DNA of 64,000 bases. Origin: Nitriliruptorales bacterium (GTDB lineage Bacteria; Actinomycetota; Nitriliruptoria; Nitriliruptorales; JAHWKO01). The DNA is taken from contig JBHELG010000033.1 of assembly GCA_046263195.1 (NCBI GenBank), positions 4,364-68,363 of the forward strand, read 5' to 3'. Positions 1,642 through 46,947 of this stretch are shown here, in pieces (position 1 is the first letter of the stretch; each line of letters starts with the position of its first letter). The translations under genes were made by a program, and so were the position numbers. The notes under the pieces are model-generated. The model was given only the letters and a program-made list of their open reading frames with translations. It made no database searches and had not been told where the DNA came from.

Positions 1642-2301
1642 TCAACGGCCGGTCAGCAGCCGTCGCACATCATCCTCCGTCTCAGGGGTGACGAGCGCGA
1701 GCACTTCGTCACCAGGCGCGAAGACCGTGTCGCCGCGCGGCACGAAGACGTGGTCGTGACGCACGACCGCGACGAAGGTCGCGTCGCGGGGCGTGTCGAG
1801 ATCCATGATCCGTCGATCCACGACCGGCGCGTCCTCCGCCAACGTCACCTCCACGAGACGGATCTTGCCGCCTTCGAGCATGAGGAGGCGGACGAGGTCA
1901 CCAACGGTCAGTGCCTCCTGTACGAGCGACGTGACCAGGTGGGGGGTCGAGACGGACACGTCGACGCCCCAGGCCTCCGTGAACAGCCAGGAGTTCTCGG
2001 GATGGTTCACGCGAGCGATGACCCGTGGCACCGCGAACTCCTGCTTCGCGAGCAGGGATATGACGAGGTTGTCCTCGTCGTCGCCCGTGACGGCAACCAT
2101 CACGTCGACGCTGTCGAGGCGGGCTGCGGCGAGTGAGGAGAACTCGCACGCATCCGCCACGTGCCACTCGACATGGCTCAGGTGCGCCCGCTCGACCACC
2201 TCCGGGTCCTGCTCGATGAGCAGAACCTCGAAGCCGCTCGCCTCTAGCGTGCGAGCCACGTACTGTCCCACGTTCCCCGCGCCGGCGATCGCCACGCGCA
2301 T
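1642..2301 (-). CDS. trkA: Trk system potassium uptake protein TrkA (RCK: TrkA-N + TrkA-C)
   Basis: Last 219 codons of ORF 1642..2964(-), from the ATG on complement 2299..2301. 'MRVAIAGAGNVGQYVA' is a Rossmann GxGxxG. The upstream half of the 440-aa ORF is an out-of-frame read of the neighbouring trkA. Confidence 0.9.
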   Translation of the reverse strand: MRVAIAGAGNVGQYVARTLEASGFEVLLIEQDPEVVERAHLSHVEWHVADACEFSSLAAARLDSVDVMVAVTGDDEDNLVISLLAKQEFAVPRVIARVNHPENSWLFTEAWGVDVSVSTPHLVTSLVQEALTVGDLVRLLMLEGGKIRLVEVTLAEDAPVVDRRIMDLDTPRDATFVAVVRHDHVFVPRGDTVFAPGDEVLALVTPETEDDVRRLLTGR

Positions 2302-2957
2302 CAGCGCCGCCCCGCCTCGAGCCGGGCCTGCAAGTCCCCGAGTGCAGCGACGGCGACGACAAGATGGATGATGTCGTTCTCCTGGCCGATGAGATCCTCG
2401 GAAGCCACGTGCGCCTCCCCGAAACGGCTGACCGAGGCCAGGCGAATGCGGCCCGGCTCCTCCAGGGAGGTGAGTCGACGGCCTACCCAGGCGACGGGCA
2501 GGTCCCGTTCGACGAGGCAGACCCGTCCGGTCGGATCCACCCAATCCTGGCTCGTGTCCCCTGGAAAGAGGCGCCGCAGTACCTGATCGGTGGTCCACGC
2601 CACCGTCGGCACTGTCGGGATCCCCAGGCGCTGGTAGATGACGGCCCGTCGAGGGTCGTAGATGCGGGCGACCACCCGTTCCACCCCGTAGGTCTCCCGC
2701 CCGATCCGAGCCGACAAGATGTTCGAGTTGTCCCCGTTCGTGACGGCGGCAAGACCTCCGGCTTCCTCGATGCCGGCTGCGGCGAGTGCGTCGCGGTCGA
2801 AGCCGAGGCCTGTGACGCGCTGTCCGCGGAAGGTCTCGGGCAGCCGCCGAAACGCCTGCGGGGCCTTGTCGATGACCGACACCGTGTGTCCGCCGTCCTC
2901 CAGACGTTGGGCCAAGCCGCTGCCCACCCGCCCGCAGCCGATCACCACGACATGCAC
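2301..2957 (-). CDS. trkA: Trk system potassium uptake protein TrkA, second paralogue
   Basis: ORF track 218 aa, GTG start, 'VVVIGCGRVGSGLAQRL' GxGxxG plus a TrkA-C region. Its TGA shares one base with the ATG of the downstream trkA (TGATG). Confidence 0.9.
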   Translation of the reverse strand: MHVVVIGCGRVGSGLAQRLEDGGHTVSVIDKAPQAFRRLPETFRGQRVTGLGFDRDALAAAGIEEAGGLAAVTNGDNSNILSARIGRETYGVERVVARIYDPRRAVIYQRLGIPTVPTVAWTTDQVLRRLFPGDTSQDWVDPTGRVCLVERDLPVAWVGRRLTSLEEPGRIRLASVSRFGEAHVASEDLIGQENDIIHLVVAVAALGDLQARLEAGRR

Positions 2958-2980
2958 GCCCCACTCCTATGCCACACGTG

Positions 2981-4153
2981 TCACCAGCGGAGGAGCGCCG
3001 CGACTCCCCCGTGCACCCGCAGCGCCTCGGCGGCTTCCTCCTCGACCGGAGTGACCTGGGCGCCCGTTGCCACCGCCCGCTGGATCATGCGCTCCAAGAG
3101 GAGCGGCTCCTCGACGGTCTCCTGCACCGTGGGCATCTGATCGCTCGTGTAGAGCAGGCCCTCGGGAGTGCGGTAACCGGAGAACGAGGCGTCAACGTCG
3201 AACAGCAGCCGTTCGACCCGCCCCTCGTTCAGGGAGGCGAGCACGTCGTCCAGGCCGAGCGCGCCGGCCCCGCCTGCCAGGGTGCGATTCTTCGCCTCGT
3301 CGACGAGGTTGAGCTCGCGCTCCCGGCGCACCGACTTCAGCAGGTCCCAGGCCGACTCGGCGATGTTGTTGGGGGCTTCATCACCCCATGACAGGTCGAA
3401 GACGAGAAGGTGTTCACCCGGAGACGGGTGCAACTCCTCCGAGAAGGGCTTCGTGAGTCGAGGATCACCGGCTACTACGAGCCGATCCCATCTGCGACGG
3501 TTGGCGATGTCTGCGATCACACCGGCCTGCTCCCGCAGGAAGCGGTTACGGTTCTCGTCGACCCGCTCTTCGTAGCGGTCACGTCGATGGCCTCCGGGTC
3601 GCGTGTCGAGCGGCTGTGCGGGGGCAGGCCCGCTGTGCTCGCGCCAATCACGCCCTCCGACCGTGAACATCTCGTGAAAGAGCTCTTCAGCCTCGCCGAC
3701 ACGCCATTCGAGCAGCCGGACCCCCCGGTTGTGGACGACCGCGATCCCGGCAGGACGCCCTTCGTCGTAGACAGCCACGAGCGGACGAACGTAGGCGCTC
3801 CCGTCGAATACCACCCGATCCTGGAAGGGGGTTTGGACCGCGACGGTCTCGGTCCGGTCATCCGCCACCGTGGCGAACAAGGCCCGGCCGCGCCCGTAGC
3901 GGGAGGCGTCGAGCAGCCGCTCGAGGTCAGGTTCAAGCTTTTCCATGCGTTCCGACAAGGCGACCCAGTGGTCGTGTGGGCCGGTTTCCTTCACGCGCTG
4001 ACGGAGATTTCGTAGCTCGTTACGAATCGCGATCGGCCATCCCGGTCGGGGCTCGGCCGCACGCTCTGGCGTGATTCCGACGAAGACCGACAGCACACCC
4101 ACGTCGTCGCGCAGGTTGATGAGGTCGAGGATCGTCTGCTCGTCAAGACCCAT
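2981..4153 (-). CDS. bacterial aeRF1-like protein (baeRF / Vms1-ANKZF1-type release-factor/peptidyl-tRNA-hydrolase superfamily), function unknown
   Basis: ORF track 390 aa. Three-part architecture ending in an eRF1/Pelota domain-3-like tail ('ALGLDDVLASLNEGRVERLLFD...AEALRVHGGVAALLRW'), with a central 'TVGGRDW' loop. Assignment by remembered family features only. Confidence 0.55.
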   Translation of the reverse strand: MGLDEQTILDLINLRDDVGVLSVFVGITPERAAEPRPGWPIAIRNELRNLRQRVKETGPHDHWVALSERMEKLEPDLERLLDASRYGRGRALFATVADDRTETVAVQTPFQDRVVFDGSAYVRPLVAVYDEGRPAGIAVVHNRGVRLLEWRVGEAEELFHEMFTVGGRDWREHSGPAPAQPLDTRPGGHRRDRYEERVDENRNRFLREQAGVIADIANRRRWDRLVVAGDPRLTKPFSEELHPSPGEHLLVFDLSWGDEAPNNIAESAWDLLKSVRRERELNLVDEAKNRTLAGGAGALGLDDVLASLNEGRVERLLFDVDASFSGYRTPEGLLYTSDQMPTVQETVEEPLLLERMIQRAVATGAQVTPVEEEAAEALRVHGGVAALLRW

Positions 4154-4309
4154 GCCATCACCCTAGCAACGGTCCGGCAGCCCGAATGACCGGCTCGGGC
4201 GAGGTCACACTGGTAGCGTTGCCGGCCTTTGGCACAACTCGAGGATCGTGGCTTCCATCATCGTCTGCGAGCCCTGCCCGGGGAGCGCCGTCGTGCATGA
4301 GGCAGCTGT

Positions 4310-5290
4310 GTGAGAAAGCTCTTCTACGCTGTCTCGGCCCTCCTCATCGGTTTGGCCCTTTGGGTCGTGCCATTGCCCTTCTACGTCGTCCAGCCGGAAC
4401 CGGCCGTTCCGGTACTGGATGCCGTGCGGGTCACGGGCGCGCCCGACAGGTTGACCGGGGACCTGATGATCACGACGGTCAATCTCGTGCCTGCGAGCAC
4501 CTTCAAGGCGGTGGACGCCCAGTTCTTCGATTCCAACGCCGAGCTCCTCCCCGCCGATGCGGTCATACCAGAGGGCGTCCGCGAGCAGGAGTTCCTGGAG
4601 GCGCAGGCGCACCTGTTCGACGAGAGCGTGCGGGTAGCCACAACGGTGGGGTTACGCCTCACCGGCCGCGAGGTGTCGCTGTCGGGGGAGGGCGCCGAGG
4701 TGCTGCAGGTGACGCCGGGCAGCCAGGCGGAGGGGTTACTGCAGCCGGGCGATGTCGTCGTGGCCGTCAACGGTGAGCCTGTCAGTCTCGCGACCGATCT
4801 TGCGGTGCGAACCATGCGCGCGGCTCCCGGCGAGCAGCTCCGGCTTGGGGTGCGACGCGGAGACGCCGAGCTCGACGTGGAGGTGGCGGTCGGAGCGATC
4901 CCAGGCACGTCACAGACGGGACTCGGCGTCGCGGTCAGGACGGCGAACGAGCAGATCGCGCTACCGCCGGGTATCGCCGTCGAAGACGTCTCCAAGATCG
5001 GGGGCCCCTCCGCAGGGCTCGTGCTTGCGCTCGCCGTCTACGACCTCTTCGACCCGGTGGATCTCACCCGGGGACGGCGCATCGCGGGCACGGGCACAGT
5101 GAGCCTGTCGGGAGTGGTGGGACCCATCGGCGGGGTGGAGGAGAAGGTTCGGGGCGCCGAACTCGCGCAGGCGACCGTGTTCCTCGCCCCTGCCGAGCAG
5201 GCGGCGCGGGCGCGGGAAGTTTCACCCGAAGGACTCGAGGTGGTTGGGATATCCACGGTCGAAGAAGCCATCGAGGCGTTGAGACGCTGA
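4310..5290 (+). CDS. PDZ-domain Lon-like (S16) serine protease, YlbL/SdrC-type, N-terminal membrane anchor
   Basis: ORF track 326 aa, GTG start. It has an N-terminal TM segment, a PDZ-like '[17 protein letters not shown]', and the Lon catalytic motif '[15 protein letters not shown]'. Confidence 0.8.
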
Positions 5291-5884
5291 TGGGGGGTGG
5301 TCGGCGTCACGACCGCAACGGGCGAGGAAGTTCGCGAGCAGGTGAGGACCGACCGTGGTCAAGATCGACTCGGGATGGAACTGAACCCCTTCGACATCGA
5401 ATCGGCGGTGCCGCAAGCCCATCACGAGTCCACCGGCGGTCTCTGCCGTGATCTTCAGATCGCCGGGGAAGGTCTCGCGCTCGACGATGAGGGAATGGTA
5501 ACGGGTGGCCTCGAACGGCACGGGCAGGCCCGTGAGCACCCCTTCCCCCCGGTGGTAGATCTGGCTCGTCTTGCCATGCACGAGCTCGGGCGCGCGCACT
5601 ATCCGGCCGCCGTAGACCTCACCGATGCACTGGTGACCCAGGCAGACGCCCAGCAGAGGCGTTTTGCCGGCGACTGCCCGTACCACTTCGCACGACAAGC
5701 CAGCGTCAGCTGGGCTGCCGGGGCCGGGGCTGATCACCACCCCATCGGGCAGTTCAGTCAGCAGCTCTTCGATGGTGAAGGCGTCGTTGCGAGCCACCTC
5801 CACCTCTGCTCCGAGCTCGCCAAGCTGCTGAACGAGGTTGAACGTGAATGAGTCGTAATTGTCGATGACAAGGACACTGGTCAT
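5222..5884 (-). CDS. trpG: glutamine amidotransferase of anthranilate/aminodeoxychorismate synthase (TrpG/PabA)
   Basis: ORF track 220 aa. '[16 protein letters not shown]', 'GVCLGHQ' (catalytic Cys) and 'FHPES' are all present. Synteny with sortase and crgA matches actinobacteria. The last ~23 codons overlap the convergent protease gene. Confidence 0.9.
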
Positions 5885-5968
5885 TCACGTTCCTTGAAGA
5901 CATCCGCGAAGCTGGAACGCTACCGTTCCGTGCGGCGTCTCTGCACCAGTCGACGAAAGAGCGCCCAC

Positions 5969-7030
5969 ATGCGGAATCTGCCCCCCGCGGTGGCGCTCCT
6001 GCGAGAACGCCTGGAAGCGGCCCTCACGGACGAGGTCAACCGCCTGTGGTCTCGGCTCGTCGGTCTACACCCCTACCTCGCCCCGCTAGCCGATGAACTC
6101 CGCGCCTTCGTGCTTCGCGGCGGGAAACGACTACGACCGCTGTTCGTACTCCTCGGCTTCCAAGCCGCGGGAGGGGGGGATCCGCAGGCGGTCATGGGTC
6201 CTGCGCTGGCCCTCGAGCTTCTCCACACCTGCGCTCTTGTCCATGATGATGTCATTGACCGTTCGGCTCTGCGCCGAGGTCATCCCGCTGTCCACGCTGC
6301 CTTTGCTGGGCGCCACCCGGTGCAAGGGTGCCGCGATCGCTATGGGGAGGCGGTCGCGATTCTGCTCGGAGACCTGGCGTTCGTACAGGCCGACGAGCTC
6401 TTTCTTCGCAGCGAGGTCCCGTCATCGCGGCTGCTCGCCGCCTTTCGCGTGTTCACGACGATGCGAGAAGAGCTCACCGCCGGTCAGTTTCTCGACGTGG
6501 AGGCGTCGCGGAGCGGGGCGACCTCGATCGAGCTCGCGCTGGCGGTAGCGCGCTACAAGTCAGGCAGCTATTCCGTCGCCCGACCGCTCGAGATCGGCGC
6601 GCGACTTGCCGACGGCGGTGACGGTCTCTCGCATAGGCTCGCGGCGGCTGGCCTGCCGCTCGGACAGGCCTTCCAGCTGCGCGACGACGTTCTGAGCGTG
6701 TTCGGGGCGGAAGCGGAAACGGGCAAGCCCACTCTGTCAGACCTCGCCGAGGGCAAGCGGACCTTGCTCGTCGCTCTCACCGCCGAGCGGCTCGACGCCG
6801 CGTCCCGAGCTCGTTTCGATGCCCTCCTCGGCCGTTCCGACCTTTCCGACGAGCAGGCCGACGAACTGCGCGGGCTCATGCGAGCCTCCGGAGGTCTGGC
6901 TGCGACGGAACGCTGGACCGACGAGCTGTTCAACCAGGCGATGGAGCAGCTGGAAGCAATCCCGATCGCCGAAGGGACGCGAGACGAACTGAGGGACCTC
7001 GCCCTCTACCTCGTCTCGCGGCACGCTTGA
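5969..7030 (+). CDS. polyprenyl (geranylgeranyl-type) diphosphate synthase
   Basis: ORF 5894..7030 begins with TTG; I prefer the ATG at 5969. First DDxxD is 'LVHDDVIDRS', second is 'FQLRDDVLSVFG'. Confidence 0.85.
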   Translation: MRNLPPAVALLRERLEAALTDEVNRLWSRLVGLHPYLAPLADELRAFVLRGGKRLRPLFVLLGFQAAGGGDPQAVMGPALALELLHTCALVHDDVIDRSALRRGHPAVHAAFAGRHPVQGCRDRYGEAVAILLGDLAFVQADELFLRSEVPSSRLLAAFRVFTTMREELTAGQFLDVEASRSGATSIELALAVARYKSGSYSVARPLEIGARLADGGDGLSHRLAAAGLPLGQAFQLRDDVLSVFGAEAETGKPTLSDLAEGKRTLLVALTAERLDAASRARFDALLGRSDLSDEQADELRGLMRASGGLAATERWTDELFNQAMEQLEAIPIAEGTRDELRDLALYLVSRHA

Positions 7031-7043
7031 CCGGATGCCGCCG

Positions 7044-7193
7044 CTACAGACCAGCATGCCGTGGTCCCAACGAGGCGGAGATGCTCGGGTTCTCCATGTA
7101 GGACTCGACCCAGGGGAAGACCACGGTGAACAACAGCCACAGCGTGGCCACGACGACGAACACGACGATCACGACCCGGATGAAGCGTTTCAC
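7044..7193 (-). CDS. unlisted 49-codon membrane peptide, translationally coupled to the sortase gene
   Basis: Read by hand; below the ORF-track size cut-off. A GTG on complement 7191..7193 overlaps the sortase TGA (GTGA). It encodes 'VKRFIRVVIVVFVVVATLWLLFTVVFPWVESYMENPSISASLGPRHAGL*', one TM helix. About 44 of 48 codons end in G/C. Confidence 0.45.
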   Translation of the reverse strand: MKRFIRVVIVVFVVVATLWLLFTVVFPWVESYMENPSISASLGPRHAGL

Positions 7194-7816
7194 AGCAGCA
7201 CGGAGAACACGACGAGCCGTCTGGCCGCGCTGAACCGCGGGTGGCAGGTCGTCATGGTCATGGTCGGCTCACCGGTACCAAGGGGGTCATGACCCAAGAC
7301 CCACACGTCACCCGGATCCACGATCCGACTGGTCCTGACGACATAGATCCACTCGCGTCCCTGGCGGTCGACGACGTGCACCCGGTCGCCCGGACCGAGT
7401 TGGTCGAGATGGTAGAAGGGGGCGCCGTAGGTCGTGCGATGTCCGGCGACGGCAAAGTTGCCCACGCTGCCCGGGGAAGCGGTGGCAGGGTAGTGGCCAG
7501 GGCCACGCTTCAGGCGCTCTTTTTCGATGCCATCCACGATGAACAGGGGTCCCTCGCGCACGATCGGCGCCGCGCTGCCCGGACGCTTGAACCAGAGAGC
7601 AGCGTAAGCATCACCGTCTCTTGCAAGGGCGTCAGGGGCAGCGCCCGGTGCGGGCAATGGCAGTGCGCCGACCTTCGCCTGCCAGGTGGCGAGCAGGTCC
7701 TCCTGAGCTCTCTCCGTCGTGATGTTCGTGAAAGCAAGCAGGTAGACCACGTAGAGCAGCACGAGCGTGCCCCCGGCGATGAGCGTCCAACCCACTGCGC
7801 GGAGGATCCGCGCCAT
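7190..7816 (-). CDS. class E-like sortase
   Basis: Inside ORF 7190..7909(-). Start taken at the ATG on complement 7814..7816 ('MARILRAVGWTLIAGGTLVLL', signal-anchor); an alternative ATG is at 7861. 'VAGHRTTYGAPF' and 'TMTTCHP' (TLxTC-type active site) are present. Confidence 0.85.
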   Translation of the reverse strand: MARILRAVGWTLIAGGTLVLLYVVYLLAFTNITTERAQEDLLATWQAKVGALPLPAPGAAPDALARDGDAYAALWFKRPGSAAPIVREGPLFIVDGIEKERLKRGPGHYPATASPGSVGNFAVAGHRTTYGAPFYHLDQLGPGDRVHVVDRQGREWIYVVRTSRIVDPGDVWVLGHDPLGTGEPTMTMTTCHPRFSAARRLVVFSVLL

Positions 7817-7872
7817 GCGCACCTCCTCGTCGCCGCTACCATCCGCGGGTCGTCGATACATCTGGACCGAAG

Positions 7873-8118
7873 GTGCCGAGGAGCAGACACCGCCGCAAGG
7901 GCAAGTCACGTCCTCGACCGCAACTGGCTGCCGGCCCGGTTGTGAAGCCGAGACCGAGTCCGCGCTGGGTTCCGGTCGTCGGACTCTCGCTGATCGGACT
8001 CGGGCTCCTCGTCGTCCTGGTCAACTACCTGCCCGGTCTGTTCGAGACGAACTGGCTTCTGCTCGCGGGGCTAGTCCTCATGACCGGAGGGTTCGTTCTG
8101 CTGACGACCTGGCGCTAG
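7873..8118 (+). CDS. crgA: cell division protein CrgA
   Basis: ORF track 81 aa. Basic N-terminus 'MPRSRHRRKGKSRPRP' followed by two TM helices. The position next to sortase and trpG is the conserved actinobacterial arrangement. Confidence 0.8.
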   Translation: MPRSRHRRKGKSRPRPQLAAGPVVKPRPSPRWVPVVGLSLIGLGLLVVLVNYLPGLFETNWLLLAGLVLMTGGFVLLTTWR

Positions 8119-12029: not shown

Positions 12030-12230
12030 TCGCGCGTCACGGCGACGCCACCAGGAACGCGGTCGGATTCCGCGGCGGTCCCGCCACTGTGACCGGGGAG
12101 TGAGCCTCCGGGGCGTACCTAGACGTCCGACGCAATCAAGCGGCCACCGGTGGGGTCCGGGAAGGCCGGAGGCGGAAGCTTTGATCCGGGAGCCAGGAGA
12201 CTGGGGCGTCGTCACGGGCCAGCGGGCCGG
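12030..12230 (+). promoter_or_regulatory. cobalamin (AdoCbl) riboswitch
   Basis: The core 'CCAGGAACGCGGTCGGATTCCGCGGCGGTCCCGCCACTGT' (12051..12090) matches the conserved GGGAA...GGTG.GAATCC...CCCGCCACTGT region. The B12-box-like 'AGCCAGGAGACTGG' is at 12191..12204. It sits directly upstream of cbtB. Boundaries are approximate. Confidence 0.85.
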
Positions 12231-12441: not shown

Positions 12442-13194
12442 GTGACCCACCAGACGCTCGCGTCCTGCTTGCGGCGGGGACTTCTTGCCGGCCTGCTCGG
12501 GGGGCTCCTCGCCGGGTTCTTCGCCCTCGTGATCGGGGAGAAGCCACTCGAGCAGGCGATCCGCTTGGAAGCAGTCGCAGCGTCGAGCGGAGTGGCCAAC
12601 ACACAAGCGCCCGCGGACCCCGAAGGGGACGGCACCGGGGTGGTCGTTTCCCGTCGCACTCAACGCCTCGGCCTGCTCGCCGCCACCGGTGTCGTCGGCG
12701 TCGCACTCGGTGGCCTGTTCGGCGCCGTGTTCGCCATGGTGGGCGGAGGAGTAACCACGGACGGTCCATGGCTGGCGAGCGTGAAGCTCGGAGTGGCGGC
12801 TTGGCTAGCGGTCGCGGTCCTGCCCTCCCTGAAGTATCCGGCCAACCCTCCCGGTGTGGGCGACCCCGCCACGGTGGGTTCGCGCAGCGTCTGGTATCTC
12901 ACCGCGATCCTCCTGTCTGTCGTCACGGCCCTGGCCGTCTGGGGGTTGAACGGTCGGCTGAAGCACGTCGGGGTCTCCGTTGCGCAGCGGCACCTGCTCG
13001 CCGGCGCCGCTGCGGTGGCGGGAGTCGTCCTCGTCGCGGCGCTGCCCGCCAATTCGGACCCGATCAGGATTCCTGCGGACCTGCTCTGGAACTTCCGCCT
13101 CAACGCGTTCGCTACGACGGCCACCTTGTGGTTCACGCTCGTGGTCGTTTTCGGCCTGCTCGGCGTCCGTGGGGCTCACCGGGGGGCCAGGTGA
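12442..13194 (+). CDS. cbtA: cobalt transporter subunit CbtA
   Basis: ORF track 250 aa, GTG start, multi-TM. 'GLLAGLLGGLLAGFFALVIGEKPLEQAIRLE' is typical of the CbtA N-terminus. Paired with cbtB behind the riboswitch. Confidence 0.8.
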   Translation: MTHQTLASCLRRGLLAGLLGGLLAGFFALVIGEKPLEQAIRLEAVAASSGVANTQAPADPEGDGTGVVVSRRTQRLGLLAATGVVGVALGGLFGAVFAMVGGGVTTDGPWLASVKLGVAAWLAVAVLPSLKYPANPPGVGDPATVGSRSVWYLTAILLSVVTALAVWGLNGRLKHVGVSVAQRHLLAGAAAVAGVVLVAALPANSDPIRIPADLLWNFRLNAFATTATLWFTLVVVFGLLGVRGAHRGAR

Positions 13195-14878: not shown

Positions 14879-16407
14879 AAGGGGCGATCCTCCTGGGAGG
14901 AACGGGGTCGGACGTCGGCAAGAGCGTGCTCGTCGCTGGCCTGTGTCGCTGGCTGTCCCGCTGCGGCGTCAAGGTGGCGCCGTTCAAGGCTCAGAACATG
15001 GCGTTGAACTCGGTCGTGACTCCCGACGGCGGTGAGATCGGACGGGCGCAGGCGGCTCAGGCTGCAGCGGCAGGCGTGGCCCCCGAGGTCGCCATGAACC
15101 CCGTGCTCATCAAGCCGACCGGCGAGCGCCACAGCCAGGTTGTCGTCATGGGTCGGGCCGCCTTCAACGCCAGCGCACGCTCGTACCGCGACCACGGCGC
15201 AGAGCTCCTCCCGGTCGTCATCGAAGCGTTCTCGGACCTGTCCTCGCGATTCGACGTCGTCGTCTGCGAGGGTGCCGGGAGCATCGCCGAGATGAACCTC
15301 CGCCGCGGCGACCTCGCCAACCTCGGACTGGCCAGGGCCTTGGACCTGCCCGTCGTCGTCGTCGGAGACATCGACCGGGGCGGGGTCTTCGCCGCCTTCT
15401 ACGGCAGCCTCGCCCTGCTCGAGGCCGCCGACCAGGCGCACGTAGCCGGGTTCATCGTCAACCGCTTTCGCGGCGACCGGGGCGTGCTCGCGCCCGGACT
15501 GCGGCAGCTCGCAGCGCTCACCGGCCGCCCGGTGCTCGGCGTGCTGCCCCACCAGGACGGGTTGTGGCTCGACGCCGAGGACAGCCTGTCCTTGGACGTG
15601 GGTGGCTGGGACCGCGGCGGAGGCGGAACCATCGACGCACTGGATGTTGTCGTGGTGCGCCTGCCACGAATCAGCAACTTCACCGACGTTGACGCCCTGA
15701 CCGTCGAACCAGGCGTGTCCGTGCGCTTCTCGACGAGTCCGGCCGCGATCGCGCGCGCCGATCTCGCGATCCTGCCCGGTTCGAAGTCGACGGTAGACGA
15801 CCTGTCCTGGCTGCGGCGTATGGGAATCGCAGGCGCCCTACTTGAGCGGGCTGCGGCCTGCAGACCGATTCTCGCAGTCTGTGGCGGCTACCAGATGCTC
15901 GGACGTCGTATCGTCGACGAGTTCGAATCCGGCGCCGGTGAGGTCGACGGGATCGGGCTCCTGCCGGTCGAGACCCGTTTCGAGCCCACCAAGCACCTCG
16001 ACCGTCCCATGGGTGTGTGCCCGTTCCTGGGCTGGGTGGACGCAAGCGGCTATGAAATTCGTCATGGACGAACTCGGGTGGCGGGTGACACCCCCTTCCT
16101 CGTTGCCGTTGACGGCTCTCCTGAGGGTTGCGTCGTCGGCAGTGTGATCGGCACGTCGTGGCACGGGTTGCTCGAGGGGGACGTCCTGCGCCGTGCCCTG
16201 CTCAGGTGGGTGGCGGATACGACGGGACGTGACTGGCGGCCCGGCATCCGACCATTCGAGGCGGTGCGCGAGGAACGGCTCGATCGCCTCGGTGACCTCG
16301 TCGCAGCGCACCTAGACACGGAGGCGTTGACGGCGCTCATCGATAGGGGGCCCGCGAGCGGTCTGCCGCTCGTCCCGCCCGCCGGCGTGCCGGAGGTGGG
16401 TAGATGA
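14875..16407 (+). CDS. cobQ: cobyric acid synthase CobQ/CbiP
   Basis: 3' 510 codons of ORF 14326..16407. The ATG at 14875 overlaps the cbiB TGA (ATGA). 'GTGSDVGKSVLVAGLCR', 'FKAQNMALNS', and a GATase-3 region 'AVCGGYQMLG'. Confidence 0.95.
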   Translation: MKGAILLGGTGSDVGKSVLVAGLCRWLSRCGVKVAPFKAQNMALNSVVTPDGGEIGRAQAAQAAAAGVAPEVAMNPVLIKPTGERHSQVVVMGRAAFNASARSYRDHGAELLPVVIEAFSDLSSRFDVVVCEGAGSIAEMNLRRGDLANLGLARALDLPVVVVGDIDRGGVFAAFYGSLALLEAADQAHVAGFIVNRFRGDRGVLAPGLRQLAALTGRPVLGVLPHQDGLWLDAEDSLSLDVGGWDRGGGGTIDALDVVVVRLPRISNFTDVDALTVEPGVSVRFSTSPAAIARADLAILPGSKSTVDDLSWLRRMGIAGALLERAAACRPILAVCGGYQMLGRRIVDEFESGAGEVDGIGLLPVETRFEPTKHLDRPMGVCPFLGWVDASGYEIRHGRTRVAGDTPFLVAVDGSPEGCVVGSVIGTSWHGLLEGDVLRRALLRWVADTTGRDWRPGIRPFEAVREERLDRLGDLVAAHLDTEALTALIDRGPASGLPLVPPAGVPEVGR

Positions 16408-19400
16408 GCAGCGCCAAGGTCGAGCGTCCGATGATCCTGTTCCTCACCACGGCCGACACCGAAGTGCTTGCGGCTGCGGAAGCCGGGGAACGCCTACCAG
16501 CCGGCTTCCCGCACGTACGCCCAGTCAACCCTGTCGACGCCCCGGATGACTCCGGGGAGCTCAGTCGCTGGCTCGACGAGGTTCTGAAGGGAGTGGTGGT
16601 CGTACTCGTCCGCCTTCTCGGCGGACGTCGTGCCTGGCCGGCAGGTTTCGACCTCGTCCGTGAGCTCTGCCAGGCACGAAACCTGCCGCTCCTGGCCTTC
16701 GGGGGAGAGGACGTGGTGGATGCTGAGCTCACCGCGGCCTCGACCGTCCCCTCCGGCGTCATCAGGCACGGTTTCGAGTACCTGCGTCACGGCGGTGTAG
16801 AAAACACCGTCGAACTGCTGCGCTTCGTGGCAGACACCGTGCTGTTCGGGGGGTTCGGGTTCGGGCCACCCACGGAGATACCGCGCTGCGGCTGGTACCG
16901 ACCCGAGCTCAAGGACCGCTTGGACCGGGAAAAGCCGACCATCGGCGTGATCTTCTACCGGGCTCACTTCGTGGCCGGCAACATGGGCTTCATCGATGCC
17001 CTGCTCGAAGCCATCGAGGCCTCGGGGGCCAACCCTCTCGCCGTGTACGCCTATTCGCTCCGGCCGGAGGCCGACGGGCGTGTCCCGGCACTAGAGCTCC
17101 TCGCTGACGGGTGGGAGGGCGGTCGCAAGACCGCCGATGGGACATTTCAGGTCGACGCCCTCGTGCTCACGGTGCTGGCGATGGGCGGGTCGAATGCAGC
17201 TGATGCGGAGAGCTGGGAGGTACCGGCGCTGCAGGCGCTCGACGTCCCGGTGGTGCAAGCCCTGTGTGCCACGAGCAGCCGCGAACGCTGGGCCGCCTCC
17301 GACGCGGGCCTGTCGCCACTCGACGTTGCGATGCAGGTCGCGATGCCGGAGTTCGATGGACGCATCGTCACGGTTCCCTGCTCGTTCAAGGAGGAGGTCA
17401 CCACCGCTCACACCTCGGTGTACCGCTACGTCCCCGACCCGGAACGTGCCGCACGGGTGGCCGGCACCGTCGTCCGCCACGCCCTGCTGCGCAGGACTGC
17501 GAACGCGGACAAGAAAGTCGCCATCCTCCTGTCGAACTATCCGACCCGCCACAGCCGGGTCGGCAACGCGGTCGGGCTCGACACCCCCGCCTCGGCCATC
17601 GTCCTGCTCGAGTCTCTACGCGAGGCGGGGTTTCGGGTGGAGGGAGTCCCTCCCGATGGGGACTCGCTCGTTCACGCGCTCATCGCGTCGGGAGGCCACG
17701 ACCAAGAATTCCTCACCGAAGCTCAGCTCGCGGGGGCCAGCGGCCGTCTCGAGGCCGAACGCTACGCAGCCTGGTTCCAGCGCCTGCCCGTCAGTCTCCG
17801 GGAGGCCGTGGAGCGCCACTGGGGGCCACCACCCGGCGAGCTCTACCTCAGCCCAGACCGACGGGCCTTCGTCGTGTCGGGTCTCGTGTTCGGCCACGTG
17901 TTCGTCGGCATCCAGCCGCCCCGGGGCTTCGGCGAGAACCCGATCGCCATCTACCACGACCCCCATCTGCCGCCCACCCACCACTATCTGGCTGCCTACT
18001 GCTGGCTGAGGGAGGAGTTCGGCGCCCACGCCGTCGTACACCTCGGAAAGCATGGGACGCTCGAGTGGCTACCAGGTAAGGGACTTGGCCTCTCGGCGGG
18101 GTGCGCCCCGGACGCTGCCCTCGGAGACCTTCCCCTCTTCTACCCCTTCGTCGTCAACGATCCAGGCGAGGGGACCCAGGCGAAGCGCCGCGCCCACGCC
18201 ACCATCGTCGACCACCTCGTAGCGCCGATGATGCGCGCCGAGACCTATGACGACCTCGCGCGCCTGGAACAGCTGCTCGACGAGCACGCCCAGGTCGAGA
18301 GCCTCGACCCCTCGAAGCTACCGGCCATACGAGCCCAGATCTGGGAGGTGCTCACCCGGGCCGAGCTCCACCGCGACCTCAGCCTGAGCGAGCCGCCCGA
18401 GGACTTCGGTGAACTCGTCCTCCAGGTGGACGGCTACCTGTGCGAGATCAAAGACCTCCAGGTCCGCGATGGCCTTCACGTGCTCGGGGTTCCCCCGGAG
18501 GGTGAGCAGCTGCGCGGTCTCGCCAAAGCGATCCTCCGCCTGCCGCAGCGTGCCGGCCTCCCTGGGCTGCGATCAGCGGTCGGGCAGGTGTTCGGGCTCG
18601 ATGAGCGTTGGCTGCTGGAGGAGCCTGGGCAGCCGTCAGCCGCACCGCCGGCCCTGCTTGCCATCGCACCCGGGGCCGCGCGGACCCGCGCTGACCTGCT
18701 CGATCGCCTCGAGGAGCTCGTGGACCGGCTACTCGAGGCCCTCGACGCGAAGGGCTGGGACGCCAGCGCCGCCGAGGCCGTCGTCCAGGACGTCCTGCTT
18801 GACCCGCCCCGCCCGGCCCCCGCCGAGCATGGGCCGGGTGGGGGCAGGAGCAGTCCCGTCATAGAGGTGTTGCGGCTCGCCTGCGCTGAGGTGGTCCCAC
18901 GCCTGCGGGCATCCAGCCGTGAGGTCGAGGCGCTCCTGGCCGGCCTCGATGGGCGTTTCGTGCCGCCAGGACCATCCGGGTCACCGACCCGGGGACGCCT
19001 CGACGTCCTACCGACCGGCAAGAACTTCTACTCCGTCGACCCCAAGGGGCTCCCCTCGCGGCTCGCATGGGAGGTCGGCCAGCGCATGGCCTGCGACCTT
19101 CTGGCCCGCTACCAGAGGGACGAGGGTGCCCTGCCCGAATCGATCGGCATCGTCGTGTGGGGGACGGCGAACATGCGCACGAACGGGGACGACATCGCGG
19201 AGGTTCTCGCCCTGCTCGGGGTACGTCCCCTTTGGAGTGACGAGTCACGACGGGTGATCGGACTCGAGGTCACGCCCCTCGAAGAGCTCGGCCGTCCCCG
19301 GGTCGACGTGACGGTCCGCATCAGCGGCTTCTTCCGGGACGCCTTCCCCCACCTCGTCGAGCTCGTCGACCGGGCCGTGGAGATGGTCGCCTCGCTCGAC

Positions 19401-20225
19401 GAGCCCGACGAGTGGAACTTCGTCGCCAAGCATGCTCGCACCGACCAGGCCCGTCACCGGAGCAGTGGCGTTGCCGAGGACATCGCCTGGCGGCGGGCAA
19501 CGACACGCATCTTCGGCTCGAAGCCGGGCGCCTACGGGGCGGGTCTCCTGCCGCTGCTCGACGCACGCAACTGGCGCAGCGACGACGACCTGGCCGAGGT
19601 CTACGCCGTGTGGGGCGGTTACGCCTACGGGCGTGACCTGGACGGCGTCCAGGCCCGCGAGGAGATGGAGACGAACTTCCGGCGCATGGCCGTGGCGGTG
19701 AAGAATCAGGACACCCGCGAGCACGACCTCTTCGATTCGGACGACTACTTCCAGTACCACGGCGGAATGGTCGCCGCGGTCCGAGCCTTGACCGGAGCCA
19801 ACCCAAAGGCCTATGTCGGGGACTCTGCCGACCCTTCCCGCCTCCACACCCGATCCCTTCAGGAGGAGACTCACCGGGTCTTCCGTGCGCGAGTCGTGAA
19901 CCCGCGCTGGATCGCGTCGATGCGCCGCCATGGGTACAAGGGGGCTTTCGAGCTGTCCGCCACGGTCGACTATCTCTTCGGTTACGACGCCACCGCGGGC
20001 GTCGTCGACGACTGGATGTACGAAGCCCTCGCATCCCGCTACGTGTTCGACCCCGAGACCCGAGCCTTCCTCGAGCGGTCGAACCCCTGGGCGCTGAAGG
20101 CCATGGTGGAGCGCCTGCTCGAGGCGGCCGAGCGCGGATTGTGGGCCGAACCGGGCGACGGAACGCTGGATGCCCTCCGTGCCGCCTACCTCGACGTGGA
20201 CGGCGAGCTGGAGGGAAGGACGTGA
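16404..20225 (+). CDS. cobN: cobaltochelatase large subunit CobN
   Basis: ORF track 1273 aa, ATGA overlap with cobQ. CobN/Mg-chelatase H-family length and motifs ('[14 protein letters not shown]', 'DNPRWI'-like '[19 protein letters not shown]'). Confidence 0.95.
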
Positions 20226-20232
20226 GGGTCAC

Positions 20233-22173
20233 GTGAGCGTTCCCTACCCGTTCCCTGCGATCGTGGCGCAGGAGCAGCTGAAGCTCGCTCTCCTCCTGAA
20301 CGCCGTGGATCCCACCATCGGCGGGGTACTCGTACGCGGCGAGAAGGGCACGGCGAAGTCGACCGCCGTACGGGCCCTTGCTGCCCTCCTGCCTGAGCTC
20401 ACGATGGTCGTCGACTGTCCCTTCATCTGCGACCCCGCCGCGCCCAACCCGACCTGCCCAGCCGGCCCTCACAACGGCACCGAGGGCGTCCGGCGCCCGA
20501 CCCGGCTCGTCGAGCTACCGGTCGGGGCCACCGAGGACCGCGTGTCCGGCTCCATCGACATCGAACGCGCCCTGACGGAAGGAGCGCGCGCATTCGAGCC
20601 TGGCCTACTCGCCGCCGCCCACCGCGGGATCCTCTACGTCGACGAGGTGAACCTCCTTGCCGACCACCTCGTCGACCTCCTCCTCGACGCCGCCGCGATG
20701 GGCACGAACCATGTGGAGCGAGAAGGCATTTCTGTGCGCCACCCGGCGCGTTTTCTTCTCGTCGGCACGATGAATCCCGAGGAGGGCGAACTTCGGCCGC
20801 AGCTGCTCGACCGCTTCGGTCTCACCGTGGAGATCACGGCGCCGCGTGACCCCGTCCTGCGGAGCGAGGTCGTCCGTCGCCGTCTGGCCTATGAAGCCGA
20901 TCCCCTGCGCTTCGCCTTCCGCTTCGTGGCGGAGGAGACCCGGCTCGCAGAGGGGATCCTCGCGGCCCGTGGGCTGCTGGACCGGGTCGAACTGCCGGAG
21001 AGGGAGCTCGACCGCATAGTCGCCGTCTGTTCCGCCTTCGAGGTGGACGGACTGCGTGCCGACATCATCATGGCCAAGGCCGCTCGTGCCCTGGCCGCCT
21101 GGGAGGGTCGAAGGACGGTCGAGCGGGACGACGTCCGCCGGACTGCGCTCCTGACCCTGCCTCACCGTCGCCGCCGCCAGCCCTTCGAGTCCCCAGGGAT
21201 GGACGAGGACATGCTCGAGCGCGTCCTCGGTGACGATGACAGGCCCCAGCCACCCCCCCGCGGTTCCACCTCCGCCGACGAGCCCACGCAAGGCTCCGGG
21301 CGAGGCGAGGCGCACGCTGCTCCCCCGCCGACAGAGCATGCGAAGGCGGAGGCACCGGAACGTCTGCTCGACGCAGGGGAGGTGTTCCGCCCGGCCGTCC
21401 TCACCGTGCCCGGTGTCGGTGCCGGGGCCTATGGCCGGCGCAGCCCCAGCGAATCGAGCCTCGGCCGCGAGGTAGGCGTGGGAGATCCCAGCGGCGGCAG
21501 ACTCGCTCTGGCCGCGACCGTGAGGGTCGCTGCCCCGCACCAAGCGGTCCGAGGCCGCATCCCAGGCGAACCTCTCCAGCTCCGACCAGAGGACCTGCGC
21601 GGCCGGATCCGTCAGGGACGAGAAGGCAATCTCATCGTCTTCGTCCTCGATGCCTCAGGCTCCATGGGAGCGCAAAGCCGCATGACCGCGGTGAAGGGTG
21701 CCGTCCGGTCGCTGCTGCTGGACGCCTACCAACGGCGCGACAAGGTCTCCCTCGTCGCCTTCCGCGGTGACGGTGCCGAGCTTGTCCTGCCACCCACATC
21801 CTCGGTGGAACTCGCCGACCGGCGTCTCCTCGGACTGCGCACCGGGGGGCGTACACCTCTTGCCGCCGGGCTCGTCCGGGCCCATGAGCTCCTCGCCGCC
21901 GAGTCGGTCCGCGAACCACAACGCCGTCCCCTGCTCGTCCTGCTCACCGACGGCCGTGCCAACTCGAGCGGGGGACTGGAAGCGGCGCAGCGGACCGCCG
22001 CGGCTCTCGCGCGGCGCCGAGTCGCAGCCGCAGTCGTCGACACGGAGGAGGGCTATGTTCGCCTCGGGCTCGCCGCCGCAGTGGCCCGCCAGCTTCGTGC
22101 CCCCTGCCTACGACTCGAGGAGCTCGCCGCCGCTCATCTTGCCGACGCCGTCCGCAGCCTGAGCGCGGCGTAG
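20233..22173 (+). CDS. ChlI/ChlD-type fused chelatase ATPase (AAA+ N-terminus, vWA C-terminus), presumed CobN partner
   Basis: Inside ORF 20170..22173. GTG at 20233 ('[22 protein letters not shown]'). Walker A 'GEKGTAKST', Walker B '[10 protein letters not shown]', and C-terminal MIDAS '[10 protein letters not shown]'. Confidence 0.85.
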
Positions 22174-22192
22174 AGGCGTGCGAGGAGGGGGC

Positions 22193-22792
22193 ATGGAAAG
22201 GACGGTCCAGCCAGAGAGCGCTCCCGCGGGACAGGCAGACAGAGCTCCTCAAGAGCGTCGCCGTCGCAGACGTGAGCGTCCGCTGCTCGTCGTCCACACC
22301 GGTCAAGGCAAAGGCAAGTCCACGGCCGCGTTCGGACTCATGCTCCGGGCCTGGAACCAGGGCTGGCGCATCGGCGTGTTCCAGTTCATCAAGTCCGGAA
22401 AGTGGAAGGTCGGGGAGGAGGCCGCGGCTCGAGCCCTCGGCAACATCGACTGGTTCAAGATGGGTGACGGCTGGACATGGACCTCGCGTGACCTCGAGGA
22501 CTCCGCGGAACTTGCCCGCGAAGGCTGGGAGGAGGTCAAGCGCTGCCTGATCGACCAGCGCTATGAGTTCCTCCTCCTCGACGAGTTCACCTACCCCATG
22601 AAGTTCGGCTGGGTGGCCACCCCCGACGTCGTCACGGCTCTCGTGACCAGGCCGGGGTTCCAACACGTCGTCATCACCGGTCGCGACGCCCCGACCGAGC
22701 TCGTAGACGCAGCGGATCTCGTTACCGAGATGCGCAAGATCCGCCACCCCTTCGACCACGGTCACCGCGGCCAGAAGGGCATCGAGTGGTAG
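22193..22792 (+). CDS. cobO: cob(I)yrinic acid a,c-diamide adenosyltransferase
   Basis: Inside ORF 22178..22792. The ATG at 22193 is preceded by GAGGAGGGGG. 'VHTGQGKGKSTAAFGL' and 'LLLDEFTYP' are present. Confidence 0.9.
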   Translation: MERTVQPESAPAGQADRAPQERRRRRRERPLLVVHTGQGKGKSTAAFGLMLRAWNQGWRIGVFQFIKSGKWKVGEEAAARALGNIDWFKMGDGWTWTSRDLEDSAELAREGWEEVKRCLIDQRYEFLLLDEFTYPMKFGWVATPDVVTALVTRPGFQHVVITGRDAPTELVDAADLVTEMRKIRHPFDHGHRGQKGIEW

Positions 22793-24171
22793 CACGCCTC
22801 GTCGTGGCCGGCACTCGCTCGGGTGTGGGCAAGACAACCGTCGCGGTGGGGCTCATGGCCGCCCTGCGCGCGCGTGGTCTGATGGTGTCCGGGCACAAGA
22901 TCGGCCCCGACTTCATCGACCCGAGCTACCACGCCCTCGCCAGCGGTCGTCCGCCCCGCAACCTGGACGCGTTCCTCGTCGGTTCGGACCTCATCGGGCC
23001 CCTCTTCGCACACGGCGCGGAAGGCGCTGACGTCGCCATCATCGAAGGTGTCATGGGCCTGTTCGATGGGCGGGCCGGCGGCGACGAGGCCTCCACGGCC
23101 CACGTCTCCCGCCTCCTCGCCGCACCCGTGCTGCTCGTGGTCGATGCGGCCGCCGTTTCCCGTTCGGTAGCCGCAGAAGTGCTTGGCTTTGTCACCTTCG
23201 ACCGGAGTGTGCGCGTCGCCGGGGTCGTGCTGAACCGCGTCGGATCCGACGGGCACGAGCGGCTGCTGCGTGAAGCGCTGGCGCCCCTCGGACTGCCGGT
23301 CGTCGGAGCACTGCGACGCGACGATCGCCTCGCCACCCCCTCCCGACACCTCGGGCTCATTCCGAGCTCAGAACGCGAATCAGAGGCTCGGGCCACGGTC
23401 TCAGCGGCTGGGGCAGCGGTCCTCGAGCGGGTCGACCTCGACGCTGTGCTTCCTCTCGCCCGCTCGGCTCCGTCGTTCGACGTCGAACCGTGGTCACCAC
23501 AACGTGCGCTCGGGCTGACCGAGCCGGCCCGACCAGCCGCGCTCGTAGCCGTCGCCGGCGGTCCTGCCTTCACCTTCGTCTACACCGAGCACCGGGAACT
23601 GCTTGCCGCCGCCGGTGCCGACCTCGTCACCGTCGATCCCACCTGCGACGAATCCTTGCCACAGGGCACGGCCGCGCTCTACCTCGGCGGCGGCTTCCCC
23701 GAGGAGCACACAGCCGAGCTCGCGGGAAACGCCGCCATGCGAGCGGCTGTCACCGCCTTCCGCGGCCCCATCGTGGCCGAGTGCGGCGGGCTGCTCTACC
23801 TGTGCCGGCGTCTGTCCGGCGAGCCCATGTGCGGAATCGTCGCGGCCGACGCCACCTGGGGGCGTCAGCTCGTGCTCGCATACCGGGAAGCGAGGACGGC
23901 CTCTCCTTCGCCTCTCGGTCCGACCGGCACGCCGGCCCGCGCTCACGAGTTCCACCGTACGACGTTGACGCCGCGGGCCGGCCCGGGAAGGACCGTAGGC
24001 CCGGGCGGGCGGATCGGTGTGCGTCCGGCGTGGCGTCTGGAGGACGGCAGCGTGGAAGGGTTCGCGGACCGGCGTCTGCACGCGAGCTACCTCCATCCCC
24101 ACTGGGCGGCGGCCCCGCGCCTGGCTGGGGCCCTCGTGACAGCCGCCACATCCGGCGTGGTGGCGACGTGA
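22786..24171 (+). CDS. cobB: cobyrinic acid a,c-diamide synthase CobB/CbiA
   Basis: ORF track 461 aa. The GTG overlaps the cobO end by 7 nt. 'GTRSGVGKTTVAVGL', 'GPDFIDPSYH', and the amidotransferase Cys 'AECGGLLYL'. Confidence 0.9.
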   Translation: MVARLVVAGTRSGVGKTTVAVGLMAALRARGLMVSGHKIGPDFIDPSYHALASGRPPRNLDAFLVGSDLIGPLFAHGAEGADVAIIEGVMGLFDGRAGGDEASTAHVSRLLAAPVLLVVDAAAVSRSVAAEVLGFVTFDRSVRVAGVVLNRVGSDGHERLLREALAPLGLPVVGALRRDDRLATPSRHLGLIPSSERESEARATVSAAGAAVLERVDLDAVLPLARSAPSFDVEPWSPQRALGLTEPARPAALVAVAGGPAFTFVYTEHRELLAAAGADLVTVDPTCDESLPQGTAALYLGGGFPEEHTAELAGNAAMRAAVTAFRGPIVAECGGLLYLCRRLSGEPMCGIVAADATWGRQLVLAYREARTASPSPLGPTGTPARAHEFHRTTLTPRAGPGRTVGPGGRIGVRPAWRLEDGSVEGFADRRLHASYLHPHWAAAPRLAGALVTAATSGVVAT

Positions 24172-31350: not shown

Positions 31351-31611
31351 ATGACGCTGACCAGGAGCGACCCGCCAGGAGCTGCCGTCGGTCACCTCGG
31401 ACGCAGGAGGACCTGTGAAACCCCCCTCTACACCGTCACCGTCGACTGCACCGCATGCGGTGCCTGCCTGCGCACCTGCCCGGAACGCTCCATCCGCCCC
31501 GCCGTCCCAGGCTCCCCTGCCCCGCTCGTCGTGCTCGACACCTGCAGCGGATGTGGCGAGTGCGCCGAGATCTGCCCGGTCGAGGCCTGCGTGGAGGTGA
31601 CGCGGTCATGA
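31351..31611 (+). CDS. 2x[4Fe-4S]-type ferredoxin embedded in the corrin operon
   Basis: ORF track 86 aa. The ATG directly abuts the cobJ TAG. Two cluster motifs: 'CTACGACLRTCP' and 'CSGCGECAEICP'. Confidence 0.75.
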   Translation: MTLTRSDPPGAAVGHLGRRRTCETPLYTVTVDCTACGACLRTCPERSIRPAVPGSPAPLVVLDTCSGCGECAEICPVEACVEVTRS

Positions 31612-41869: not shown

Positions 41870-41986
41870 CACCTGCCGTCAGGCTGCGAAGTCGGTGATG
41901 GGCCGATAGCGTGCCCTCGCACGGCGTGCCGACGTAGCCTCGAGGTTTGAGCCCGCAGGCGACGCGGTCTTTTCCGGGAGGACGCC

Positions 41987-42583: not shown

Positions 42584-42803
42584 GCCCCTCGCCACGTGGG
42601 AAAGGACTTGGAAGGGTATGAGCGGACCCGGGTCGGACCAGGAAGCGGGTGGTAGCATCTGAGAGCTCACGCGAGCGTCGCGCGGGACGTCGAGGTACCG
42701 CACCATCTTCCCCGGGATGCGGCGAAGCCGCCGGGCGGGCTGGGCGAGATGAGGTCACGTTCCAGACACCAGATGGGCGGTGACCGGAGGCTGTGAGGAG
42801 TAC

Positions 42804-45714: not shown

Positions 45715-45733
45715 CCCGCACGAGTTCCGAGCC

Positions 45734-46885: not shown

Positions 46886-46947
46886 GTCCAGGGGTAGCCG
46901 GATCAGGTCAGCAGCTGAAAGAGGACCGGCTGGCCGCGGTACCGAGG

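Follow-up and report, generated by a model that had tools for sequence, protein, structure and literature searches.

A probable Balon-type ribosome hibernation factor of the MSMEG_1130 lineage with a clade-specific GG[Q/H] loop in a Nitriliruptorales bacterium

The stretch of DNA analysed here, called the window in the following, comprises 64,000 nucleotides (nt) from a Nitriliruptorales bacterium (assembly GCA_046263195.1, contig JBHELG010000033.1, positions 4,364-68,363 of the forward strand). Its minus strand carries at positions 2981-4153 an open reading frame (ORF) for a protein of 390 amino acids (aa), which is the subject of this report and which an earlier reading of this DNA (the original prediction) had assigned to the archaeo-eukaryotic release factor 1 (aeRF1) superfamily. 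The ORF lies exactly where it had been placed, and both peptides quoted from it are present in the translation. As the GC content at its codon positions is coding-like (0.80 at third positions, GC3, and 0.45 at second positions, GC2, in a genome of about 67% GC), the ORF is taken as a real gene, and since the N-terminus of the protein is in register with all homologs in the family alignment, the ATG is the correct start codon. An identical protein (P0001), which comes from a Nitriliruptorales metagenome-assembled genome (MAG), has already been deposited and is called "VLRF1 family aeRF1-type release factor". The gene has no paralog in the 64-kb window. The gene and its parts are as follows.

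2981-4153, minus strand: predicted protein of the Balon/MSMEG_1130 family with aeRF1 fold, ATG-to-stop ORF of 390 aa, stop codon at 2981-2983
3794-4153, minus strand: N-terminal domain, residues ~1-120 (AlphaFold2 secondary structure; boundary approximate), equivalent of the part that binds the decoding centre
3299-3793, minus strand: middle domain, residues ~121-285, with the baeRF_family10 match at 121-244 and an RNase-H-like core
3587-3664, minus strand: long loop, residues 164-189, between strand 154-162 and helix 188-220, containing 'TVGGRDWREHSGP' and ending in GGH
3587-3595, minus strand: G187-G188-H189, the position aligned with GGQ in HMMER alignments to eRF1 (3e20_C), translated as GGH
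2984-3298, minus strand: C-terminal domain of the eRF1_3/Pelota type, residues ~286-390 (eRF1_3 match, Pelota and eRF1 alignments), equivalent of the EF-Tu-facing part of Balon

In aeRF1 and in Balon it is the RNase-H-like core of the middle domain that approaches the peptidyl-transferase centre.

To which family does this protein belong? The NCBIfam model NF052288, "MSMEG_1130 family ribosome hibernation factor", covers residues 3-390 with positions 3-387 of its 387 positions (E 2.9e-96, 322.8 bits), and the next models score just 47 bits (NF052287, cutoff 330, the model of the P. urativorans Balon) and 39 bits (NF052289, cutoff 320, the model of Rv2629 of M. tuberculosis). A phmmer search against the sequences of the Protein Data Bank (PDB) led to chains 8v9j_z and 8v9l_z, "Ribosome hibernation factor Balon (MSMEG_1130)", with an E-value of 1.3e-45 and residues 3-390 aligned to chain positions 7-375. 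A family profile made from an alignment of 35 sequences (A1), which was also the input for structure prediction, matches the solved Balons, namely Msmeg1130 (8v9j_z, 1.6e-73), the P. urativorans protein (8rd8_B, 4.8e-7) and Rv2629 (8v9k_z, 5.4e-4, over the C-terminal half only), and it matches Pelota (3j15_A, 1.4e-8) and eRF1 (4.3e-7) as well. The AlphaFold2 model of the 390-aa protein (predicted local distance difference test, pLDDT, 87; predicted template modelling score, pTM, 0.80) finds by Foldseek its best PDB matches in the same two Msmeg1130 chains (E 6e-33, template modelling score (TM) 0.78-0.84), followed by the P. urativorans Balon (8rd8, 8rdw and 8rdv, TM 0.62-0.69, E about 5e-18) and, further away, by Rv2629 (TM 0.60-0.64), aRF1/eRF1 (TM ~0.45-0.5) and Pelota (TM 0.22-0.44), the match to aRF1, eRF1 and Pelota having a Foldseek probability of 1.0.

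The placement in the aeRF1 superfamily put forward in the original prediction is borne out by this predicted fold and by Pfam, where the protein matches baeRF_family10 (PF18854) over residues 121-244 with an E-value of 8.9e-23 and 81.6 bits against a gathering threshold of 27.1, and baeRF_family5 with 2.6e-15. The profile searches and the structure prediction that had been proposed as a check thus both returned significant likeness to the aeRF1 fold. Also the C-terminal signature that had been singled out proved sound, as it aligns with domain 3 of eRF1 and Pelota; Pfam eRF1_3 matches residues 282-390 weakly (E 0.0048), and the profile matches to Pelota and eRF1 are those given above. The label "Vms1-type" had to be dropped: the score against acVLRF1 (PF18859) is 22.1 bits at a threshold of 27.1, neither GxuQ/GGxSQ nor GSQ is present, and the N-terminal domain is there. 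Three further memberships were considered and rejected, that of Host_attach (PF10116; 15.7 bits against a threshold of 26.7, E 0.024), that of aRF1/eRF1 (GGH in place of GGQ, neither NIKS nor YxCxxxF, TIGR03676 at 21.8 bits against 234.7) and that of Pelota/Dom34 (the low TM range, and a sequence match restricted to the middle and C-terminal domains). The family as a whole is large: at E ≤ 1e-3 it comprises 4,416 cluster representatives, of which 351 reach E ≤ 1e-30.

With Msmeg1130 (8v9j/8v9l; NF052288), the protein of the window is collinear over its full length at about 30% identity; both are actinobacterial and both have three domains. Common to the two are the invariant family motifs GRGRALF, DEGRPAG, R146, R197, R204, R224 and the C-terminal LRW, of which DEGRPAG, R197, R204 and R224 lie in the middle domain and are invariant across the family alignment. 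NIKS and a literal GGQ are absent from both, and a motif search of the 390-aa sequence found none of NIKS, YxCxxxF and GGQ. The C-terminal domain contains a small insert of two short predicted strands (residues 326-328 and ~334-335 by DSSP of the AlphaFold2 model) in a segment that aligns with 'VRYVGTVGADGSLY' of Msmeg1130; an insert of two β-strands was described for baeRF-1 (Burroughs and Aravind, 2019; PMC6514570) and a β-hairpin insertion in the C-terminal domain for Balon (Helena-Bueno et al., 2024; PMC10901736). The two proteins differ in the loop of the middle domain, which is 14 residues longer in the protein of the window (51 residues from R146 to R197 as compared to 37), and at the position of GGQ, where Msmeg1130 has AGQ and the window protein GGH. 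They also differ in their setting, Msmeg1130 being reported as hypoxia-induced whereas the neighbours of the gene in the window are trkA and an S16 protease. The P. urativorans Balon (AOC03_06830; 8rd8/8rdv/8rdw) has the same aeRF1-like architecture and likewise neither NIKS nor GGQ, but is only about 15% identical. Rv2629 (8v9k) is a Balon-family A-site binder of the same fold but distant.

What is known about proteins of this kind? Under cold shock and in stationary phase, Balon was found in the A site of vacant as well as translating ribosomes, where it binds independently of mRNA and together with EF-Tu(GDP) (Helena-Bueno et al., 2024; PMC10901736). Balon, Msmeg1130 and Rv2629 all lack NIKS and GGQ; Balon contacts A1492 and A1913 in the decoding centre through an HP motif, lays a lasso loop around A2602 and traps bL27, and the P. 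urativorans protein remains outside the catalytic centre so that the nascent chain is preserved (PMC10901736). For Msmeg1130 and Rv2629, A-site binding was seen by cryo-electron microscopy, and the two proteins were examined in an in vitro translation assay with green fluorescent protein, co-sediment with ribosomes and recruit EF-Tu(GDP) (PMC10901736). The statement in the original prediction that bacterial members of the superfamily lack experimental function is therefore outdated, as the closest solved relative of the protein, Msmeg1130, is a Balon homolog seen on the ribosome.

We consider it likely that the product of the gene at 2981-4153 is a Balon-type ribosome hibernation factor of the MSMEG_1130 lineage. 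This assignment draws on what was observed here, namely the fold, the full-length homology to a ribosome-bound Balon structure, the missing NIKS and literal GGQ motifs, and the retention of the invariant motifs. By homology with Msmeg1130 and the P. urativorans Balon, the protein is expected, upon growth arrest, to bind to the A site of 70S ribosomes and to place its N-terminal domain at the decoding centre, leaving the mRNA unread. Entry of tRNA would be blocked without release of the nascent chain. The C-terminal domain would point towards the GTPase centre and offer a docking place for EF-Tu(GDP), which would in turn stabilize the complex, and in this way the ribosome would be kept silent and protected until conditions are better. 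Such mRNA-independent A-site binding with EF-Tu(GDP) would be the mode of action of the P. urativorans protein. A "housekeeping quality-control role", as had been considered conceivable, would then better be replaced by stress-induced ribosome hibernation.

Where in this protein is the counterpart of the GGQ motif? The original prediction had seen it in TVGGRDWREHSGP (residues 164-176, containing TVGGRDW), but HMMER puts it at G187-G188-H189, aligning GGQSALRFARLR ('GGQSALRF') of eRF1 with GGHRRDRYEERV ('GGHRRDRY'), and does so with the single sequence as well as with the family profile; TVGGRDWREHSGP opens the long loop that ends in GGH and lies about 20 residues upstream of it. G187-G188-H189 directly precedes the long arginine-rich helix 188-220 of the AlphaFold2 model, in which the loop 164-189 is of low confidence (pLDDT <50 at 178-183). 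This loop is the probable counterpart of the Balon lasso loop and of the GGQ loop of eRF1. To compare the position across 252 sequences, it was read in a register anchored on the invariant R197, with an offset that is free of gaps in both HMMER alignments; the register replaced a plain column read-out from MAFFT, which is unreliable in this loop (Msmeg1130 is gapped there). In the clade of the 390-aa protein (≥58% identity) all 31 sequences have GG at this position, followed by Q in 16 of them, by H in 14 and by M in one, and GGx does not occur there in any of the 221 other family members examined. An xGQ is found in just three distant members, including Msmeg1130 with its AGQ. The distance from R146 to R197 is 51 residues in all 31 clade members and varies between 37 and 72 in the rest of the family, and within the clade the 20 residues from residue 173 onwards make up the second most conserved segment of the protein. 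In a neighbour-joining tree (rough and midpoint-rooted) the GG[Q/H/M] clade is monophyletic; because eight successive sister groups lack the motif, a local gain would be the more parsimonious explanation of its origin. The interchange of Q, H and M at the third position is read here as arguing against catalysis by a Gln and in favour of a glycine turn with a structural role, the loop being one that would contact the ribosome. The protein scores above the gathering threshold of baeRF_family10, which comes from the clade baeRF-1 of Burroughs and Aravind (2019). A catalytic loop with a conserved Gln was remarked upon in family 10, but such a Gln is mostly absent from the relatives sampled here, a Gln-like remnant being confined to the GGQ/GGH/GGM clade and the three distant xGQ members.

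Some observations weigh against the assignment as a Balon-type hibernation factor. The score against NF052288, 322.8 bits, stays below the curated equivalog cutoff of 480 bits and the identity to Msmeg1130 is only about 30%; because of both, orthology with Msmeg1130 and an identical function are not guaranteed. The HP motif is not conserved either: the loop at residues 26-46, 'GITPERAAEPRPGWPIAIRNE', aligns with the HP-motif loop of the P. urativorans Balon, and in the profile alignment the HP of 8rd8_B falls on R31-A32. The clade carries GG[Q/H] at the catalytic position of eRF1 in a conserved loop, leaving some room for a hydrolytic activity, which according to its description Balon does not have, and no HPF/RaiA or obvious stress gene is seen among the genes of the window that were scanned, while Balon genes mostly adjoin RaiA and are said to sit typically in stress operons (PMC10901736). 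As to the first of these points, NF052288 was also run on ten relatives, nine of which (P0007, P0013, P0034, P0060, P0079, P0096, P0101, P0115 and P0167; eight of the nine being closer homologs) score 238-370 bits in full-length alignments; the sole relative above the cutoff, with 499 bits, is a homolog from Egicoccus halophilus that is 45% identical to the protein and is named a hibernation factor by NCBI. The sub-cutoff score comes from a tight cutoff and not from a different family, and the scores place the Balon-like protein in the broader homologous family but not among its certified equivalogs. As to the HP motif, Msmeg1130 has Q-N at the aligned position and still binds to the A site, so the motif is unusable as a criterion of membership in the actinobacterial lineage.

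The GG[Q/H] loop provides the starting point for a different explanation, in which the protein is a catalytically active aeRF1-type peptidyl-tRNA hydrolase whose loop reaches into the peptidyl-transferase centre and releases the nascent chain of stalled or pre-hibernation ribosomes. The gap-free alignment of G187-G188-H189 with the GGQ of eRF1 immediately in front of an arginine-rich helix would agree with this, as would the literal GGQ of sixteen close relatives, the GG pair in all 31 clade members and a loop of fixed length among the most conserved segments of the clade, a pattern that Burroughs and Aravind tie to catalytically active families and that concerns a family, baeRF-1 family 10, which they singled out as possibly hydrolytic (PMC6514570). 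However, the window protein itself has a His and not a Gln, and the third position varies in the clade, in contrast to the families held to be catalytically active, which keep the Gln (PMC6514570). The motif looks like a local gain in the rough tree, a motif for stop codon recognition is missing, the nearest solved relative with its AGQ was described as a GGQ-less A-site hibernation factor, and the P. urativorans Balon keeps away from the catalytic centre. A hydrolase in this sense is in our view unlikely, and the wider form of the idea, that the Nitriliruptorales clade has acquired or re-acquired GG[Q/H] and consists of hibernation factors that also hydrolyse peptidyl-tRNA or of true aeRF1-type release or rescue factors, we regard as similarly doubtful. 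A function without catalysis but different from hibernation would be that of a Pelota/Dom34-like rescue factor, which recognizes stalled ribosomes with an empty A site and promotes splitting of the subunits, with no storage of ribosomes. Burroughs and Aravind proposed for baeRF-1 just such a Dom34-like, non-catalytic relief of stalled ribosomes (PMC6514570), and both the family profile and Foldseek recognize Pelota (1.4e-8 for 3j15_A and probability 1.0). Nevertheless the TM values for Pelota are much lower than the 0.62-0.84 for the two best-matching Balons, the sequence match leaves out the N-terminal domain, no Hbs1- or ABCE1-like partner was noticed nearby, and Balon lacks loop A of Pelota and stays away from the mRNA channel (PMC10901736), which makes a Pelota-like function quite unlikely.

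The overall architecture of aRF1/eRF1 is retained, with the three-domain fold, a GGQ column that reads GGH and is followed by the Arg-rich helix, and the C-terminal signature, but NIKS, YxCxxxF and the Gln are missing. The name under which the identical protein P0001 was deposited would imply yet another role, that of a factor of the Vms1/VLRF1 type whose target would be 50S-bound peptidyl-tRNA in a bacterial pathway resembling ribosome-associated quality control. Apart from this name it could refer to the weak match to acVLRF1 (E 1.9e-4), which stays below the cutoff as mentioned above; moreover, the acVLRF-1 family has no N-terminal domain and carries GGxSQ (PMC6514570), as opposed to the three domains without GSQ found here, and the scanned genes include no RqcH/RqcP neighbour. 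We regard this role as very improbable. Hardly credible, finally, is a component of a biological conflict or anti-phage system that targets or rescues ribosomes, even though Burroughs and Aravind suggested that baeRF-1 pathways arose in response to conflicts (PMC6514570): the PADLOC defence models give no match for the protein and only marginal Rossmann-type matches for its neighbours, no mobile-element genes were seen among the nearby genes scanned, the GC content is flat across the region around the gene, and the gene sits in a synteny of the core genome conserved across Nitriliruptoria (trpG/pabA, S16 protease, polyprenyl synthase, crgA).

The protein is a new and somewhat divergent member of the known Balon family that has already been deposited with a generic annotation. 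Provided that it is a Balon-type hibernation factor, this family extends into Nitriliruptoria, an actinomycetotal class represented here mostly by MAGs, and the deposited name indicates the wrong functional analogue. The practical value lies chiefly in annotation: the NF052288 cutoff of 480 bits misses nine of the ten relatives tested, and because it excludes them many such proteins are called "VLRF1 family aeRF1-type release factor", a label that is generic and arguably misleads. For research, real potential lies solely in the GG[Q/H] loop of this clade, a natural test case for whether a release-factor-like catalytic loop can exist in Balon-type proteins and for the role that the loop near the peptidyl-transferase centre plays during hibernation. 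Were the clade catalytic, it would have regained the release function that Balon has lost.

The genes next to the Balon-like gene are those that the original prediction had named, TrkA-N and TrkA-N/TrkA-C proteins downstream and a divergent protease with PDZ and Lon_C (S16) domains, and it is also correct for the window that the partner genes reported for baeRF families are absent. The immediate surroundings, from upstream to downstream of the gene, are listed below. Genes were called with a GC3-based caller that missed some of them (trkA2, mpaB and GATase), which were recovered from the ORF list and by Pfam or similarity.

4310-5290, plus strand: divergent membrane-anchored protease with PDZ and Lon_C (S16) domains (Pfam PDZ_2, Lon_C)
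4154-4309, no strand assigned: divergent intergenic region of 156 nt between the Balon-like and the S16-PDZ protease gene; promoter presumed here
2958-2980, minus strand: spacer of 23 nt from the stop codon of the Balon-like gene to the GTG start of trkA1, containing GGAG
2301-2957, minus strand: trkA1 (TrkA-N, 218 aa; Pfam TrkA_N E 1.9e-23), GTG start at 2957
1642-2301, minus strand: trkA2 (TrkA-N and TrkA-C by Pfam, ~219 aa), its start overlapping the trkA1 stop (TGATG)

A Shine-Dalgarno-like element, AGGGTGA, stands just 5' of the ATG of the Balon-like gene and is kept in the closest related locus (L001, 87% identity). The divergent intergenic region showed no sigma-70 consensus. Consensus scans of the window and of L001 likewise detected neither a sigma-70-like promoter nor a terminator in the spacer that separates the Balon-like gene from trkA1. 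The claim that the gene stands alone and is monocistronic is unsupported, since trkA1 starts 23 nt past its stop codon behind a GGAG and no terminator-like site lies in between; the Balon-like gene, trkA1 and trkA2 are probably co-transcribed, which is the simplest reading of the short spacer with its GGAG, the missing terminator and the TGATG overlap. The protease at 4310-5290 has an N-terminal hydrophobic segment and its best NCBIfam match in the SepM family (pheromone-processing S16), at 121.6 bits below the cutoff of 200. An ORF of 125 aa at 1260-1637 on the plus strand (GC3 0.85) has no Pfam match, and a counterpart of 84% identity lies next to trkA2 in L001.

How stable is this arrangement? 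Among 20 loci compared, mostly from Nitriliruptoria, trkA lies downstream of the Balon-like gene only in the window and in L001, and in L001 the spacer to trkA1 is about 217 nt long (L001 2918-3134) in place of 23 nt, which is why the linkage of the Balon-like gene with trkA is regarded as recent and not conserved. Compared with shuffled sequence, the L001 spacer shows no excess of structure (z +1.39). The difference in length indicates that about 195 nt were recently deleted or inserted, with the ribosome-binding site of trkA, ATAGGAG, kept in both the window and L001. What is conserved in the 20 loci is the upstream side, with the divergent S16-PDZ protease followed by trpG/pabA and a polyprenyl synthase. 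In 18 of the 20 loci the S16 protease and the Balon-like gene are separated by an M50 (site-2-type) protease gene, which is divergent from the Balon-like gene (e.g. L002 4722-5897 and L014 4669-5946); in L002 the protein carries a CBS domain. For this M50 protease tblastn gave no match in the window (1-64000) nor at this position in L001, and the lineage of the window has lost it at this position. Downstream of the Balon-like gene the lineage has instead a block of mpaB, ORF, trkA2 and trkA1. The M50 and S16 proteases were considered as functional partners of the Balon-like protein and rejected, the adjacency being confined to Nitriliruptoria and reading as inherited synteny. Conserved partner genes in general were discarded as well, as the neighbours vary across lineages and more distant ones have unrelated neighbours such as PALP, PNPOx, CBS, DAGK and TerC.

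Beyond the immediate surroundings, the window contains crgA, a sortase, a 2-hydroxyacid dehydrogenase, a cobalamin cluster, tilS-hpt-ftsH-folE-folP, panD, lysS and clpC. The window is core chromosome. The genes trpG/pabA, polyprenyl synthase, a sortase-like gene and crgA lie at 5222-8118, and tilS, hpt, ftsH, folE, folP, panD, lysS and clpC at 40388-58911; conserved core regions of actinobacteria typically have their genes in this order, which supports a chromosomal, non-mobile setting. No tRNA was found in the window, and its sole Rfam match is a riboswitch unrelated to the Balon-like gene:

12052-12203, plus strand: cobalamin riboswitch (Rfam RF00174, 58 bits), upstream of cbtA at 12442-13194

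The cobalamin cluster itself consists of CobN (16404-20225), a chelatase subunit (20170-22173), CobO (22178-22792), a CobB/CobQ-type protein (22786-24171), a CobA-HemD fusion (24896-26488), CbiC (31455-32183) and CobT (34749-35819).

In several MAGs of 'uncultured Actinomycetes', distant Balon-family genes for proteins of about 345 aa are preceded by a gene that ends a few nt before their start or overlaps it (L029 4992-5981, L035 4997-5974, L040 5078-6004 and L033 5078-6004). In L029 and L040 this upstream gene belongs by Pfam to the TerC family, which suggests a TerC-Balon operon in that lineage.

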